Shown here: positions 42,055 through 61,171 of the stretch, piece after piece
Layout of the letters: each line of letters opens with the position of its first letter
Numbering within the stretch: the first letter of the stretch is position 1
DNA from: Candidatus Magasanikbacteria bacterium CG1_02_32_51
Lineage (GTDB): Bacteria > Patescibacteriota > Patescibacteriia > Magasanikbacterales > UBA922
Assembly (NCBI GenBank): GCA_001871435.1
Contig: MNVC01000019.1
Coordinates: 218-64,217, forward strand
Length of the DNA: 64,000 nt
Direction of reading: 5' to 3'
Notes under the pieces: model-generated
The model's input: the letters and a program-made list of their open reading frames with translations, nothing else
Database searches by the model: none
Told to the model about the DNA's origin: nothing
Position numbers and translations under genes: made by a program

Positions 42055-42132
42055 GGATACGAAATACGAAAGGTACAAAATTACGAAAGTATTCCGCAAT
42101 TCGTATGTTCGTAAATTTCGTATTTCGTATCC
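42055..42132. repeat. nested palindromic array of a 7-mer (atacgaa / ttcgtat) in the atpA-atpG spacer
   Basis: ggatacgaaatacgaaa ... tttcgtatttcgtatcc form a perfect 17-bp inverted repeat, with inner ttacgaa / ttcgtat copies. Confidence 0.6.
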
Positions 42133-46103: not shown

Positions 46104-46436
46104 CTACTTTTTTTCTCTGTTGTCTGTTGACTGTTGTCTGTCGTCAAGTTTTTTATACTCTTCTCCAAATTGTTTTGCTTTTTTGTAAATCATCTTACCA
46201 GACAAAAGAGTTGCCAAGAAAAAAGCTGAAATCGTAAACCAAGGAGCATAACCATATTTATCTTCAAGCCACTGACCAATTAACACAAATACTACAATTG
46301 GTACAGCAATTATTGCCCCAAAGTCACCAATGATTCTCAATCCTAACATGATATATTGTCTATCTTTAGGATCCTCTGGTAAAAGTGACATAAAGTTATA
46401 AAGAATAATAGTTTGAAAAACGGTGCTATTATACAA
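46104..46436 (-). CDS. AtpZ/AtpI-like small membrane protein (ATP synthase gene 1)
   Basis: 110 aa with two TM helices, at the head of the atp operon. Confidence 0.4.
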   Translation of the reverse strand: MYNSTVFQTIILYNFMSLLPEDPKDRQYIMLGLRIIGDFGAIIAVPIVVFVLIGQWLEDKYGYAPWFTISAFFLATLLSGKMIYKKAKQFGEEYKKLDDRQQSTDNREKK

Positions 46437-46639
46437 GTTTTTCCTTATTTAGTCAATTATCCAACAAAATTTCTGTGTATAATAATGTATAAACAAAATA
46501 CACCAAAAATTAACACGCGAAAAGTTTATCATAAGTAAACCCTCTGTCAATCATAGTACTCTTGACAAACGGTTTAATGTCTGATGAAAAAATACCTTTA
46601 TAGTGTACAATTTTAGGATATTTGGCTAAGTAAACAGTA

Positions 46640-46700
46640 AATAGTAATTAGTAAAAAGATTTCAATAACAAGTTCTATTTACTATTGTCTATTTACTAAT
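46640..46700. promoter_or_regulatory. 13-bp inverted repeat (agtaattagtaaa / tttactaattact) upstream of the atp operon; candidate operator
   Basis: Read directly in the 260-bp region 5' of atpZ (minus sense). Confidence 0.3.
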
Positions 46701-55483: not shown

Positions 55484-55566
55484 AAAATTAGGAATTTAGG
55501 AATTTTAAAAAGCTATCTTTAAATACTTTAAAAATGAACTACCTCGCAGCAAGCTGACGAGGTATC
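55483..55566. repeat. AT-rich leader repeat plus the 30-nt mini version of the 114-bp element (gaactacctcgcagca|agctgacgaggtat) in the def-fmt spacer
   Basis: ttaggaatttaggaatttt matches 5694-5712. The mini element equals positions 1-16 plus about 48-63 of the 114-bp element, forming the hairpin uaccucg/cgaggua. Confidence 0.7.
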
Positions 55567-55718
55567 CAGCGGAAGATATTTATTATATTGAGAAACTCAA
55601 CGTTTCTCAAACTCTTCCTTATATGGAAACCTCGAGGCAAGCCTCTAGGAATACAATGATTAAATCATTCAAAAATTGTTTTAAAATTCCTAAATTTAAA
55701 ATTCAAAATTATATATCT

Positions 55719-56639
55719 ATGCAGAAAACAAAAATTATCTTCTTCGGTACTCACCAATTCGCAACTAAAATATTATCTGGACTAATAGACAGTCCTCTTT
55801 TTGAAATAAAAAAAGTCATTACCCAACCAGACAAACCAGTTGGGCGTAAACAAATTTTACAAAAATCTCCAGTCAAACTTCTAGCTGAAGAAAATAATTT
55901 AGAAATAGATCAACCAGATAGTTTAAAAAACTATGAACTATTGGCTAATGGCTCTGAACTATTCATCGTTGCCCAATATGGACTTCTCATTCCAGAAAAT
56001 ATCTTGAATATTCCCAAATTTGGCACAATAAACGTTCACACTTCTCTACTACCAAAATATCGAGGTGCTTCGCCAATACAATCAGCTATCTTAAATGGTG
56101 ACACAAAAACAGGAATAACTATTATGCTCATGGACAAAGGCATGGATTCTGGACCAATTTTAAGCCAAAAAGAAATAGATATTGAAAATGCTGAGACTTA
56201 CTTAGAACTTGACGCTAGAATGGCAAATATTAGCTCACAGCTACTGCTCAGTACCATACCAAAATATTTAGATAAAACAATTGTTCCCCAAAATCAAGAT
56301 GAGACACAGGTAACTCTTTGCAAAAAACTTAGTCGTGATGATGGTAAGATAGACTGGAAAAATTCATCCAAACAAATCTATAATCAATATCGAGCTTTCA
56401 CACCTTGGCCAGGTGTTTGGACAATGTGGAATGATAAAAGAATAAAATTACTAAAAATAAAAATAAGTGAAGAAAAACTAGCAACAGGGCTAGTCCAAAT
56501 AGAACAAGACAAGATTTATGTGGGAACAAATGATTTTGCACTTGAAATAACTAAACTTCAAATTGAAGGAAAACCAGTTATAGAAAGTAAGGTATTTTTG
56601 AATGGTTACAAAAATATAGACAAAGTAAAATTATTATAA
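55719..56639 (+). CDS. fmt: methionyl-tRNA formyltransferase
   Basis: KIIFFGTHQFA and the HTSLLPKYRGASPIQ formyltransferase core. Start placed at the internal Met (MQKTKIIFFGT); the ORF from 55623 is likely a 5' over-extension. Confidence 0.85.
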   Translation: MQKTKIIFFGTHQFATKILSGLIDSPLFEIKKVITQPDKPVGRKQILQKSPVKLLAEENNLEIDQPDSLKNYELLANGSELFIVAQYGLLIPENILNIPKFGTINVHTSLLPKYRGASPIQSAILNGDTKTGITIMLMDKGMDSGPILSQKEIDIENAETYLELDARMANISSQLLLSTIPKYLDKTIVPQNQDETQVTLCKKLSRDDGKIDWKNSSKQIYNQYRAFTPWPGVWTMWNDKRIKLLKIKISEEKLATGLVQIEQDKIYVGTNDFALEITKLQIEGKPVIESKVFLNGYKNIDKVKLL

Positions 56640-56651
56640 ATTTACAATTTT

Positions 56652-58145
56652 ATGTTAAATTTAAAACTTAATAAAGAAGCTATTTTTATAAACTGGCAGT
56701 CTATTTTTCTTTTAGGTACTTTTATAATTTTGAGAGTACTTTCTTTTTTTATTAGGACTAACGACATACTTCAAACTACAATAATTTTTTCTTTGTTTAT
56801 AACCATGGGGGTATTCTTTTTCAAAAATCCGACCTATGCCTTTATGTTATTACTCACAGAATTATTTCTTGGTGGCTCCGGAAACTTATTTAGCTTTTTT
56901 GGGTTATCCATTAGAACAACACTAATTTTAGTTTTCATGTTTTTATGGATATGCTACGCTCTTTATCATAAAAATTTACGCTTATTATACATTCCACACA
57001 AATTTTTTTATGTTTTACCACTCATAATGATACTAACGTTTTTTTCTTTTACAAATGCTTTATTACACCAACACAATTTTGCAGATATCATAAAAGATCT
57101 TATACCTTATACTTATTTTATACTTTTTTTACCAGCCTACCATCTATTTAATAAACAAAAACTTCAGGAATATTTCATACGTCTTATTGGAGTCTATGTT
57201 ATAGGCTCTGCACTTTTTTCTCTTTTTACCTTTGTTTTGTTTGTATCTAGGATATCATTAATTCAAGGTGCTTATTACAAATGGTATCGAGATATTGTTA
57301 ATGGAAAAATCACTTTTATAACAGATTTTTTTTATAGAATTGTTACACCAGAACACTTACTCATACCATTGATAATGATCATCATTGTAGCTTTACTAAT
57401 GCGCCAAGAAAAACACAATCACTGGTGGCGTTTGATGTTTGTTTTGTTAGCCATTACTCTTATACTAAATTTTTCTCGTGCTTACTTTTTGGGTTTTTTT
57501 GTGGGCATGGCATTTCTTATATACAAACATAACATAAAAAAATGGCTTTTTGTTTCTATTTGGTCAATAGCGATTTTGAGTATTACTTTTACAAGTATTA
57601 ATTTTATAGCTAGTCAAGGTCGTAGTTTTGGCTTAGAAATTGCTGGAGTGCGTATTGGTAGTCTTATCAAACCAATGTCTGAAACAAGTAGCTATACTAG
57701 AACAATGTTACTAGAGCCAATTTTCAAACAAATAAAAGAAGCTCCTCTACTTGGGCATGGTATAGGAAGTTCTATCACATACTACAATTCTCTAAGTCAT
57801 GATTATACAACAACCACTCAGTACGATTGGGGATATTTTGAAATGTTAGCTGAACTAGGTGTTATTGGGACGTTAGTTTATTTATTCATCATTGCAATTC
57901 TCATCATTGAAATTATCAAAAAAATACGTCTTGTAAATAACTATCATGATATATATGTAGGACTTTTAGGCTCAATTATTGCTCTACTAGTAATTAACAT
58001 AACTACCCCTGTTCTTTTTCATGTAATCGGCATCTTATTTATCACTTTAGTAATGACTTTTATGGCACAACCTTTGACTACTTTTGATAATATAGTTTTA
58101 ACTCTATATAAAATTTTTAACAAAATGAAAAAAACTATTACTTAG
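56652..58145 (+). CDS. O-antigen ligase (Wzy_C)-like polytopic membrane protein
   Basis: About 12 TM helices and a central LNFSRAYFLGFFVG motif. Confidence 0.45.
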   Translation: MLNLKLNKEAIFINWQSIFLLGTFIILRVLSFFIRTNDILQTTIIFSLFITMGVFFFKNPTYAFMLLLTELFLGGSGNLFSFFGLSIRTTLILVFMFLWICYALYHKNLRLLYIPHKFFYVLPLIMILTFFSFTNALLHQHNFADIIKDLIPYTYFILFLPAYHLFNKQKLQEYFIRLIGVYVIGSALFSLFTFVLFVSRISLIQGAYYKWYRDIVNGKITFITDFFYRIVTPEHLLIPLIMIIIVALLMRQEKHNHWWRLMFVLLAITLILNFSRAYFLGFFVGMAFLIYKHNIKKWLFVSIWSIAILSITFTSINFIASQGRSFGLEIAGVRIGSLIKPMSETSSYTRTMLLEPIFKQIKEAPLLGHGIGSSITYYNSLSHDYTTTTQYDWGYFEMLAELGVIGTLVYLFIIAILIIEIIKKIRLVNNYHDIYVGLLGSIIALLVINITTPVLFHVIGILFITLVMTFMAQPLTTFDNIVLTLYKIFNKMKKTIT

Positions 58146-58167
58146 CTAGAATTAAAAAAGAAGCAAC

Positions 58168-58884
58168 CTATGCTTCTTTTTTTAAATTATGTTTCTCTGT
58201 AATTATTTCTTTAGCTTTTTTATACTTCCCCACCTTTCCTTTCCACCATGGCAGATAACTCCATGGTTTTTTGTAAGCAAATTTTGGTAACCAATCGCTT
58301 ATTCCCCCATTAGAAATAATAGTAAACAAACATTCATCCAACCAATAACCTTTTTTACCCTGTTCAACCATTGTCAACCACAAATCCCAATCTTGAAAAC
58401 GTTTCAACTTTTCATCAAACATAGGGAAATCTTTTTTTCTAATTAAAGAGCTAGTATGAATAAAATTATTTTTCTGTAATTGAATCGGTGAAAATTCTTG
58501 AGCCAACATTTTTTTCTTTCCCAAATTGAAACTACTATAAACAAAACAAACGTCTTTTTGACTTTCCAAAATTTCTGACATTTTGGTCAACATATTTTTG
58601 TCAGCTTCAATATCAGCATCCCAAAATATCACATATTCACCTTTTGATTCTGTAAAACCTCTATTGCGAGCAGCCGGAGCACCTTTATTTTCTTCTCTAT
58701 ACCATCTTATTTTAGGATTATTGAAAATTGAAAATTGAAAATTGAAAATTGGTGGCGTACTACCATCATCAACTACAATAATTTCTGTATTTTCATAATT
58801 TTGTTTGGTAGCTGACAAAAGAGACTTCTCAAAAATCTCGGCACGATTATAAACTGGTATGATTATACTAATAAGTTTATTCAT
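58168..58884 (-). CDS. family 2 glycosyltransferase containing an in-frame heptanucleotide tandem repeat
   Basis: IIIPVYNRAEIFE...VDDGSTP (GT-A DxD region) and WDADIE. (attgaaa)x4.6 at 58720-58751 encodes IFNFQFSIFN. Confidence 0.75.
   Translation of the reverse strand: MNKLISIIIPVYNRAEIFEKSLLSATKQNYENTEIIVVDDGSTPPIFNFQFSIFNNPKIRWYREENKGAPAARNRGFTESKGEYVIFWDADIEADKNMLTKMSEILESQKDVCFVYSSFNLGKKKMLAQEFSPIQLQKNNFIHTSSLIRKKDFPMFDEKLKRFQDWDLWLTMVEQGKKGYWLDECLFTIISNGGISDWLPKFAYKKPWSYLPWWKGKVGKYKKAKEIITEKHNLKKEA
58720..58751. repeat. perfect 7-bp tandem repeat (attgaaa)x4 plus a partial copy inside the GT2 coding sequence; candidate slipped-strand phase-variation tract
   Basis: Read directly. The unit length is not a multiple of 3, so one-unit changes shift the frame. 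Confidence 0.8.
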
Positions 58885-58897
58885 AACTTTACAAACC

Positions 58898-60268
58898 TTA
58901 TGAACTTTTAACTTTCAAACTGTCCCTGACAATTTGTCTATCATCCCAAAAAATCATTTTTCCTCCAGTTATACACATAGCTTGTTCACTTCCCTTTCCT
59001 GTTAGCAAAATCAAATCCCCTACTTTGGCTATTTCTACAGCTTTACCAATAGCTTCTTTTCTATCTAATATTTCAAACAAATTTTCATTCAATTTTTTAC
59101 CAGCCTTTTGAGCAAATTCAGAAACTTCTTTGATAATAGACAATGGATTTTCATCATAAGGATCTTCGTCAGTTACAATGAAAATATCAGCCTTTTGGGC
59201 AATCATCTCTCCTATTACTTTACGACGAGATTTATCACGGCCACCACCAGTAGAACCACAGACATGAATTATTCTTCCTGTTGGTTTTAACAAATCAACA
59301 ACTTTGTATAATTTAGTAAGAGCCACTGGTTCAAAGGCATAATCAACTATTACATCAAAGCCTTTGCCTTTTGCTTCTAAAATAAATTCATTTCTTCCTG
59401 GAACATTTTTGAAAACACTAACAGTTTTTTCAATTACTTCCCAGAAAATATTTAATTCACGAGCTACTGTAATAGCACCAACAATATTATAAATATTATG
59501 TTCACCATACATTGGTGCCATAAATTTGTGATTTTCAATTTCAAAATGTAATCCATCTTTATCCACTCGAACATCACTAAACAAAAATTTGTCTGTTATA
59601 TTTTCTAAATAATCTTTTTCTTGTTTACTACCAAACACTATTTTTTTTGCAAAATTGAATTGCAAAAATTCTGGAGAATATTGGCTATTACAATTGACGA
59701 TTGCTGTTTTTCCAGCGAAGACTGGTTCGCCTAGGACGGAGTTCATTGATAATTTATTACCTAACTTTTTAACACTACACTCGGAAACGTATTCAAAAAT
59801 ATCCAATTTAGCTTTTTTATAATTTTCGAAACTACCGTGAGATTCAATATGCTCAGGATACAAATTAGTCAAAACTATCATATCATAATTGATGAAGCTA
59901 TGACGGTACTGTAAACGACCCTCAGAAGTAGTCTCAACAATTGCTACATCACATTTCTTATCTACCATTTCACGTAAATATTTTTGAATTTGCATACGAC
60001 CAAGCATGGTCATCTTCTGATCATTTAATTTTTCTTCTCCTGCAACATAAAAATCAATAGTGGATAATGAACCTACACGCAAACCAGCACTTTCCAAAAG
60101 CTGTCTCAACAGATATACAGTTGTAGATTTTCCACTAGTACCAGTAATTCCAATAACCAATAATTCTTGGGAAGGATTCTTGTATACAAAGGCTCCAAAC
60201 CAAGCAAAAAATAAATGTCTAAGATTTAAAAACTTTTTTGGAAATATTTTTTTTATTATTTTTTTCAT
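58898..60268 (-). CDS. Mur ligase family protein, MurE-like
   Basis: IGITGTSGKSTTV P-loop and VIVDYAFEP (DYAHTP-like); the C-terminal TDEDPYDENP sits where MurE has DNPR. N-terminal hydrophobic segment. Confidence 0.6.
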   Translation of the reverse strand: MKKIIKKIFPKKFLNLRHLFFAWFGAFVYKNPSQELLVIGITGTSGKSTTVYLLRQLLESAGLRVGSLSTIDFYVAGEEKLNDQKMTMLGRMQIQKYLREMVDKKCDVAIVETTSEGRLQYRHSFINYDMIVLTNLYPEHIESHGSFENYKKAKLDIFEYVSECSVKKLGNKLSMNSVLGEPVFAGKTAIVNCNSQYSPEFLQFNFAKKIVFGSKQEKDYLENITDKFLFSDVRVDKDGLHFEIENHKFMAPMYGEHNIYNIVGAITVARELNIFWEVIEKTVSVFKNVPGRNEFILEAKGKGFDVIVDYAFEPVALTKLYKVVDLLKPTGRIIHVCGSTGGGRDKSRRKVIGEMIAQKADIFIVTDEDPYDENPLSIIKEVSEFAQKAGKKLNENLFEILDRKEAIGKAVEIAKVGDLILLTGKGSEQAMCITGGKMIFWDDRQIVRDSLKVKSS

Positions 60269-60592: not shown

Positions 60593-61171
60593 TTATTTAG
60601 ACTCATTCAAACTAAGTTCATAAACTACTTTTTCAATCTTTTGAGCAGCCATTTTGGCTTGATCAAACTTGTTACGCAAATAACTGGTGAGATTAAATTC
60701 TATAAGTTCTCCTGTGATTTCTTGTGCCATGTTAGTACATTGTTTTACTTTTTTCATATCTTTCTGCGTAGCTGACTTGATAGCATAACGATACAATTCT
60801 CCAGGTACATCACAAAGTCCACCAATATAGCTACGTTCTGGAATTGTTATATCTGCAATTTTTCCTATTTTTCCAGTAGTCAAAAATTGATAAAACAAAT
60901 TAGCTTCAACATACTCTTCAAGACCAGCTTTGAAAGAACCTTCTTCTTCAACTTCTCTATATTTATAATATTTCTTCAAAAGATTTTCCAATAATTTTTT
61001 ACTATTAAGCAATTTCTCTTCAGCTTCCTTCATATTGTCCCTGTGCATGGCAAAAATAGCCCTTTTGGCATTGTACAAGGCGTCATCTGATGATTTTATT
61101 ACTTCTCTTCTTACCTCAGCATACTGAAGCAAATTTTTTTTTATACTATTCAAATATTTTTTGTCCATCAT
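60593..61171 (-). CDS. translin-family-like protein (hypothetical)
   Basis: All-helical 192 aa; YIGGLCDVPGELYRYAI resembles the translin GEL-containing signature. Confidence 0.35.
   Translation of the reverse strand: MMDKKYLNSIKKNLLQYAEVRREVIKSSDDALYNAKRAIFAMHRDNMKEAEEKLLNSKKLLENLLKKYYKYREVEEEGSFKAGLEEYVEANLFYQFLTTGKIGKIADITIPERSYIGGLCDVPGELYRYAIKSATQKDMKKVKQCTNMAQEITGELIEFNLTSYLRNKFDQAKMAAQKIEKVVYELSLNESK

Follow-up and report, generated by a model that had tools for sequence, protein, structure and literature searches.

A perfect heptanucleotide tandem repeat lies inside a glycosyltransferase gene of the 64,000-nucleotide (nt) stretch of Candidatus Magasanikbacteria bacterium CG1_02_32_51 that was analysed here (contig MNVC01000019.1; the whole stretch is called the window). 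The organism is a tiny groundwater bacterium. This tract is likely a member of the heptanucleotide class of simple sequence repeats (SSRs), made and homogenised by slippage and held in frame by selection, at a fixed length, within a permissive loop of the encoded enzyme. It is a latent frameshift site and probably not one maintained as a switch. Short arrays of this class look to be spread throughout Magasanikbacteria-type genomes of the candidate phyla radiation (CPR), including, at tolerant protein loops, housekeeping and essential genes. The tract, its gene and the protein segment that holds it are as follows.

58720-58751, minus strand: perfect heptanucleotide array (sequence reading, Tandem Repeats Finder (TRF), direct scan, shuffles).
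58168-58884, minus strand: GT2 / GT-A fold glycosyltransferase of 238 amino acids (Pfam, identity to protein P0001, AlphaFold (AF2) model, Foldseek).
58711-58764, minus strand: hypervariable connector, residues 41-58 (orthologs, AF2 model).

The plus strand reads (ATTGAAA)x4 followed by ATTG, perfect and without interruption, corresponding to C(AATTTTC)x4 AAT on the sense strand (gene nt 134-165, codons 45-55). The encoded peptide is (P)IFNFQFSIFN, in which IFNFQFSIFN forms residues 46-55, with DDGS (residues 39-42) before it and GAPAARN (residues 68-74) after it. TRF reported period 7, 4.6 copies, 100% matches and a score of 64, making the tract the top perfect array among 91 rows for the window, and in a direct scan of the 64 kb no other perfect tandem repeat combined a unit of 6 nt or more with three or more copies. 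Its 25 consecutive lag-7 matches were reached in 0 of 200 dinucleotide-preserving shuffles, where the maximum was 15 and the mean 10.8. The tract is far longer than expected by chance. A preliminary description of this DNA had reported an uninterrupted array of four attgaaa units plus a partial one; sequence reading, TRF, direct scan and shuffles all agree with it, and translation confirmed its placement of IFNFQFSIFN between the DDGS(T) and GAPAARN regions of the gene at 58168-58884.

The tract sits at 19% of the GT2 open reading frame (ORF), and both alternative frames stop at once. The unit AATTTTC has no stop codon in any of the three sense frames, whereas its complement is closed in all three. 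Predicted alleles with -2, -1, +1 and +2 units would stop after 50, 56, 57 and 63 amino acids, respectively, and those with -3 and +3 units would stay open, at 231 and 245 amino acids. The preliminary description was accordingly correct in its frame arithmetic, in which a change of one unit truncates the enzyme and a change of three units restores the frame.

Length variants of the tract were searched for among strains and relatives. The exact GT2 protein was found on five contigs of independent assemblies, which are ~99.9% identical and differ from the window by 4-6 single-nucleotide polymorphisms (SNPs) in 3-6 kb, and all five carry the same 32-nt tract. Searches that started from the adjacent Mur ligase and Wzy_C proteins, and so carry no tract bias, gave the same allele in every case in which the contig reached the tract. 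A gap-tolerant flank pattern allowing 10-40 nt between the flanks recovered from the JGI metagenomes the known contig only, with the same tract. None of 15 predicted variant products (6 + 9; -3 to +3 units and restart ORFs), comprising 13 out-of-frame and 2 in-frame (-3, +3) products, was present among 15 billion proteins, and the 90% clusters of P0001, P0003, P0004, P0014 and P0016 consist of one sequence each, and therefore hold no in-frame length variants. No split-frame match indicative of an out-of-frame allele was found in 80 species-representative loci, and a homology search with the 183 residues after the tract gave no fragment of such an allele from this or close species. The proteins of two relatives were also unchanged on 24 contigs (P0003) and 10 contigs (P0024), with no out-of-frame allele. 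Three short homologs (P0121, P0129 and P0132) were considered as out-of-frame alleles and rejected, since P0132 has a mis-called start and P0121 and P0129 are cut by contig ends. At the locus of P0132 (L104:2360-3049), the JGI call takes an internal GTG as its start; the complete GT2 ORF (MLPLISVIIPVYN...) extends intact further upstream, where it overlaps the end of the major facilitator superfamily (MFS) gene call before it.

The array, or a counterpart of it, recurs at the same site of the gene in other species. Peptides that resemble a translated 7-nt repeat occupy this site in several orthologs of only 50-76% identity, and the DNA agrees. The unit is AATTTTC in the window, L035 and L086, AAATTTC in L088, AAATTCA in L033, alternating AATTTTA/AATTTTC in L024, GAATTAA in L017 and AGATTGA in L026; an 8-nt unit occurs in L015 (CCACCTAA), and degenerate arrays include GGAATGT in L006 and L007 and a 9-mer in the closest lineage. 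At least eight species (window, L086, L087, L088, L094, L035, L033 and L024) have four units plus a partial one in a 75-nt loop, at 50-76% protein identity. The preliminary description had proposed comparing tract length in related genomes or strains as a check, and the outcome spoke against the switch it suspected: the same tract in five assemblies, and four units plus a partial one down to 50% identity.

Differences between orthologous arrays cluster by unit phase, falling at the same phase in every unit (permutation p <= 0.003), and therefore the units evolved in concert, as opposed to diverging from a common ancestor by separate point substitutions. Moreover, three different reading phases of the array occur among the window, L035 and L094, so that the DNA array, not the peptide register, is what these species share. 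Other 7-nt units at the same place encode unrelated peptides (ELRIKNYELR, RLKIEDLRFKIE, IQNSKFKIS and NVERGMRNV), and the closest lineage has a different peptide on its 9-nt repeat. In L087, the peptide IFNFQFEIFN is encoded by a degenerate repeat, with two of the three changed codons being synonymous TTC>TTT changes. An ortholog with the same protein segment and no DNA repeat had been named in the preliminary description as evidence that would count against a switch; L087 supplies this in part, keeping the peptide on a repeat that is degenerate.

The segment that holds the tract is a permissive one, according to the model and the orthologs. The connector of residues 41-58, mostly coil in the model, joins strand β2 (residues 33-40, ..IIVVDDGS) to strand β3 (residues 59-64). 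Its length among orthologs ranges from 18 to 67 residues, from DDGS to GAP, and distant orthologs have a canonical helix-type sequence there (TDNTAEVLEKYKDRIKII). In L026 (2615-2848), where the loop reaches 67 residues, the heptamer array is followed by a GC-rich, near-perfect ~33-nt direct duplication (..SVSACGLRRTSSVSACWLRRT..), which has hairpin potential and looks like a small element inserted in frame.

Period 7 is dominant among the tandem repeats in 512 kb of related DNA. In a census of perfect repeats (run >= 12) over the 80 loci (425 kb), 19 arrays had period 7, three had period 8 and one had period 12, with none at periods 4-6 or 9-11. A mismatch-tolerant lag scan of the same loci found 15 arrays at lag 7 and three at lag 8, the other lags (2-6 and 9-13) being empty. 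In a TRF census (>= 3 copies, >= 85% matches), 22 of 30 arrays had period 7, with 4, 2 and 1 at periods 8, 9 and 6, respectively, and codon-block shuffles gave almost no arrays. Array density was 18.8 per 100 kb outside long ORFs versus 4.4 inside, a ~4-fold difference based on small numbers (6 non-coding and 21 coding arrays). The features of the heptanucleotide long-SSR class, namely a 7-nt array beyond random expectation, over-representation of period 7 and enrichment in non-coding DNA, were thus found here.

The non-coding arrays are no longer than the coding ones, with 3.1-4.4 units, so that short length characterises the class and does not follow from the reading frame. For the same reason, the idea that ~4.6 copies are forced by the frame (1.x + 3 units) was ruled out. 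All coding arrays are in frame, and in-frame period-7 arrays at fixed loops span 26-42 nt. The units have no consensus between sites or genomes (AATTTTC, GAAAGTC, AGATACA, TATCCAA, CTCCTTA, CAACAGA and others). A shared motif, whether an AATT core, a binding site or a mobile oligo-element, was also ruled out, as units such as GAAAGTC, AGATACA, CTCCTTA and CAACAGA do not contain it.

Mapped onto genes, the arrays recur at the following sites: GT2 residue ~44, GT2 residue ~118, fmt residues ~69-80, fmt residues ~251-263, the fmt 5' end and the linker of the essential ligA, which encodes NAD-dependent DNA ligase. The second GT2 loop carries arrays in L024, L035, L041 and L096-98; a difference of exactly three units between L035 and L096 at this site was not upheld, the net difference being 6 codons. 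At fmt residues ~69-80, between EQPxSLK and VAQYG, 9 of 42 loci have arrays, whose units all differ; the best lag of this segment is 7 in 12 of 23 measurable loci, and its length is 14 residues in 16 loci. The ligA linker before the BRCT domain contains a perfect (GAAAGTC)x5.6 array in L096-L098 (6968-7006), unchanged across three strains distinguished by a nearby SNP, and degenerate (GAAAGTA)-type units occupy the same site in a related species (L094:7281-7322). In these two related species the array forms an in-frame pre-BRCT linker of 13-14 residues (KVESRKSKVESRN / KVESIKYKVESRKFEN). Given the equivalent arrays in fmt and ligA, the presence of a 7-nt array does not by itself mark a contingency locus in this lineage. 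The window itself holds further arrays of this kind.

55929-55961, plus strand: decayed heptanucleotide array in fmt, with units AACTATG AACTATT GGCTAAT GGCTCTG AACTA and peptide NYELLANGSEL.
55683-55710, plus strand: degenerate heptamer array, AAAATTC x3.9, 76%, shortly before the start of fmt (55719).
46116-46141, minus strand: heptamer array, sense CAACAGA x3.7, 89%, in the C-terminal tail (..RQQSTDNR..) of a 110-amino-acid membrane-protein ORF.
46629-46655, strand not assigned: non-coding heptamer array, AGTAAAT x3.9, 85% (TRF).

The decayed fmt array lies at the site where nine other species have clear 7-nt arrays, and L080 has an array at the same place before the fmt start. The ORF with the CAACAGA array adjoins ATP synthase genes, and a degenerate period-7 array was also observed at 42089-42130, between two large ATP synthase subunit genes.

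Heptanucleotides are described as the most abundant long-unit SSR class in prokaryotes, and non-triplet units as unusual in coding regions, with period 7 possibly reflecting a polymerase footprint in which ~7 nt interact with the enzyme (Mrazek 2007, as related in PMC4679880 and PMC4692102). Four units are preferred among the heptamers of Xanthomonas and Nostoc (PMC4692102). In the proposed mechanism, replication slippage, which in prokaryotes is known to prefer 7-nt units, would make arrays of ~3.5-5.5 units and homogenise them now and then. Non-coding arrays would persist freely, and genic ones would survive only where no sense frame of the unit contains a stop, the overall length preserves the frame and the segment is structurally permissive. 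The present array codes for residues 45-55 of the GT-A β2-β3 connector, where the canonical helix appears to have been lost and almost any sequence would be tolerated. Purifying selection would keep it at four units plus a partial one in the 75-nt loop, as the gain or loss of one unit would leave a stump of 50-63 amino acids, and the effective rate of length change would be low. We infer that slippage generates and homogenises the arrays and that selection accounts for the fixed length.

The preliminary description had taken the tract for a candidate phase-variable surface glycosylation switch. What stands of this claim is a non-triplet SSR in which a one-unit change would truncate the GT2 enzyme; the switching itself is disfavoured by the lack of length variants in the searches above, the conserved copy number and the arrays in fmt and ligA. 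We consider it unlikely that the tract is a contingency locus in which slipped-strand mispairing toggles the enzyme between ON (four units) and OFF (three or five units), making surface glycosylation phase-variable to advantage against phages or in host attachment. The tract is longer than composition predicts and a unit change is predicted to alter expression by truncation, as expected of such a locus, with a perfect non-triplet SSR early in the ORF and alternative frames that stop at once. Glycosyltransferases are a classic target class (general knowledge; PMC11868660), and GT2 is the last gene of its string, so that an off-state would have no polar effect. The recurrence of non-triplet arrays at the loop (7 nt; 8 nt in L015), with units evolving in concert, also implies that slippage has acted there. 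However, among the consensus assemblies no length difference between strains was found, and no OFF allele was seen in the 80 loci, in exact look-ups of the 13 out-of-frame products or in the homology search. The tract has only 4.6 units, versus 11-63 strain-variable units in Haemophilus influenzae hmw, the only well-studied heptanucleotide case (PMC12721329). SSR indel variability climbs steeply with length. The evidence points away from a switch because copies are few, variants and out-of-frame alleles were not encountered, and copy number is conserved over deep divergence, and also because similar, even identical-looking, arrays occur in ligA and fmt, where an off-state would be lethal or costly and selection for it is implausible. 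In addition, GT2 is a conserved core gene, judging from relatives encoded at >= 569 GTDB species loci.

It is improbable that the peptide is what selection sees, that is, that the alternating aromatic IFNFQFSIFN matters, for example for sheet packing or for contact with a membrane or partner, and the DNA repeat is a by-product of a periodic peptide under extreme AT codon bias. Close relatives do have similar peptides at the same loop length (ISNFQFSIFK and IFNFQFEIFN), and the synonymous changes in L087 break the DNA repeat and keep the peptide. Against this stand the dissimilar peptides that other 7-nt units encode at this site, the AATTTTC-type array read in three phases, and the 9-nt repeat with a different peptide in the closest lineage; a peptide with a 7-residue period requires just a 21-nt period, not a 7-nt one, and the model shows coil with moderate confidence. 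There is even less to expect from a DNA or RNA element, whether phased heptamers bound by a protein (for example, of the cold-shock OB-fold type, with one heptamer per domain) or heptamers that modulate transcription or translation locally, and we regard both forms as very improbable. The position and length of arrays are conserved in several genes, binding of heptamer direct repeats has been reported for CspB, and other heptamer repeats have been proposed to act in regulation (PMC4679880); but the units share no consensus between sites or genomes, the arrays lie inside ORFs at protein loops and not at regulatory positions, and the window has no Rfam match besides one tRNA.

Several observations weigh against the reading preferred here, an SSR held in frame at a fixed length. 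The concerted change of units means that units were gained and lost at the site, and, if this happened one unit at a time, that out-of-frame states were passed through. The tract is also perfect here, whereas neutral decay would degrade an array. Most strain contigs were found by exact protein identity, which biases them to the same tract, and the look-ups through neighbouring genes added only a few independent ones; moreover, contigs are consensus sequences, in which a minority of cells with another tract length would be invisible. An independent Logan contig (L101, SRR1534154_52581), corresponding to window 55632-58747, ends inside the tract after four full units, which could reflect length heterogeneity and would favour a switch. 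In a de Bruijn simulation at k=31, which we take to be Logan's k, contigs stopped at 58749 with alleles of >= 5 units and at 58744 with a 3-unit allele, and did not break with a pure 4-unit allele, so that the end at 58747 matches no simulated mixture of 3-, 4- and 5-unit alleles. Finally, the census DNA centres on one gene neighbourhood, and the lineage-wide claim relies on ~15 independent sites in 512 kb. There is an outside chance that Magasanikbacteria-type CPR bacteria actively maintain heptamer arrays at orthologous core-gene loops (GT2, fmt and ligA), with the unit replaced in concert and position and length kept. This would imply either that the arrays themselves have a function or that a process such as coupled double slippage or misaligned gene conversion homogenises them while preserving length. 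Arrays in dispensable genes such as GT2 might in that case also serve as slow contingency switches, and would be the first of their kind reported from the CPR.

Phase-variable glycosyltransferase genes with SSRs include Haemophilus lic2A/lgtC, with tetranucleotides, and Neisseria lgt and Campylobacter lipooligosaccharide (LOS)/capsule genes, with homopolymers. Like these, the GT2 gene has a non-triplet repeat in the 5' part of the ORF, where a one-unit change truncates the product. The known tracts are long enough to be hypermutable and are strain-variable, with both ON and OFF states found, whereas that of GT2, at 4.6 units, shows the same length and the ON state in all assemblies. The H. influenzae hmw1/hmw2 repeat ATCTTTC is likewise a heptanucleotide, and both it and AATTTTC are pyrimidine- and T-rich on the sense strand; however, the hmw tract lies in the 5' untranslated region, has far more copies, grades expression without a frame shift and needs an RNA hairpin and RNase III (PMC12721329). 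The GT2 tract also resembles slippage-derived low-complexity loop insertions, in which a tandem DNA duplication yields a tolerated loop or linker peptide of hypervariable length among orthologs. The units of such insertions are normally multiples of three, whereas those of the GT2 tract are 7 nt (8 nt in a few cases), giving a 7-residue peptide period and a broken frame at every single-unit step.

Close counterparts are also the heptanucleotide long SSRs of prokaryotes (Mrazek, Guo and Shah 2007; cyanobacterial repeats; GGGAATC of Xanthomonas/Nostoc; TAACTGA of Beggiatoaceae), with which the arrays share the 7-nt unit and, in the accounts cited, the predominance within a lineage of period 7 over other long units, short arrays with about four units as the commonest number, a higher density in non-coding DNA and no established function. 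As these accounts have it, the described repeats mostly follow one genome-wide consensus, are mainly intergenic and are often G-rich and capable of forming G-quadruplexes. The Magasanikbacteria arrays, in contrast, have locus-specific AT-rich units, lie in many cases in frame at orthologous loops of conserved genes and keep their copy number between species. A literature search found no paper tying CPR/Patescibacteria to phase variation or heptamer repeats.

Non-triplet SSRs in glycosyltransferase genes are routinely flagged as phase-variable. In some lineages, such tracts would be a background feature that is also present in essential genes, and predictions of repeat-based phasomes in the CPR therefore need strain- or read-level support. 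The arrays also provide a natural series in which many species carry the same array at one and the same codon, with copy number conserved and units changing in concert, in AT-rich sequence incapable of forming G-quadruplexes. This series is relevant to the preference of prokaryotes for 7-nt units and about four copies, and to the turnover of non-triplet arrays inside frameshift-intolerant genes.

The enzyme itself is a GT2-family protein. Its 238-residue sequence matches PF00535 (E = 5e-27; 95.3 bits versus a cutoff of 23.3), carries the motifs DDGS (39-42), GAPAARN (68-74), DAD (89-91) and RFQDWDLW (162-169), and is 100% identical to P0001 of Candidatus Magasanikbacteria bacterium CG_4_10_14_0_8_um_filter, a CPR/Patescibacteria metagenome-assembled genome. 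The AF2 model, built from 28 orthologs, has a GT-A fold with a confidence score (pLDDT) of 88.7, and Foldseek matched it to the GT-A enzymes 6p61, 2z86, 9omk and 1qg8 at E = 1e-14 to 1e-15. The closest solved structures are generic GT-A enzymes of ~20% identity, including 6p61, K4CP (2z86), WrtF, SpsA and TarP, and the NCBIfam equivalogs examined (TuaG, EpsD, EpsE, WcaA and others) all scored far under their cutoffs. GT2 is the last member of the gene string translin - Mur ligase - GT2, and its main neighbours are the following.

58898-60268, minus strand: MurE-subfamily Mur ligase, directly upstream of GT2 in the same orientation (TIGR01085).
56652-58145, plus strand: Wzy_C (O-antigen ligase/polymerase family) membrane protein, convergent with GT2 (PF04932, 1e-12).

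The neighbours named in the preliminary description, an O-antigen-ligase-like membrane protein and a MurE-like ligase, are upheld by the PF04932 and TIGR01085 matches, the latter at 290 bits against a cutoff of 257 for the murE subfamily. The ligase enters the TIGR01085 profile at about position 74 and is thus without the usual N-terminal domain. A translin-family protein is encoded further upstream of both genes (60593-61171, minus strand; PF01997, 2.7e-21). Within 2.5 kb of GT2, a Wzy_C gene occurs in 47 of the 80 species loci, fmt in 42 and a translin-family gene in 11. In some relatives, GT2 is instead placed after a Wzx-type flippase and a GT4 enzyme. From this gene context, with Mur ligase and Wzy_C here and the flippase and GT4 enzyme in those relatives, a role of GT2 in an envelope glycan pathway is a reasonable suggestion. 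A promoter/terminator scan around the GT2 gene gave nothing informative, and the tRNA mentioned above was the only match of the Rfam scan of the window at the gathering threshold.

Two further observations were made. A 125-bp segment between def and fmt (55534-55658) is present in the window strain, L001 and L100 but missing from strain L002. Its GC content exceeds that of the surrounding DNA, and it folds into several hairpins, with a minimum free energy of -39.9 kcal/mol versus -22.2 ± 3.2 kcal/mol for shuffles (z = -5.5); no Rfam family matches it. A pair of 25-nt inverted arms (55486-55510 and 55679-55703) brackets the segment, and these arms are short arrays in their own right, with 8-nt and 7-nt units. 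The segment may be a small mobile or structured element; the start of the Logan contig L101 lies inside this polymorphic segment. In addition, many GTDB records with a Magasanikbacteria-type neighbourhood (L010-L012, L014, L016 and others) bear the title 'uncultured Gammaproteobacteria bacterium', apparently through systematic mislabelling.

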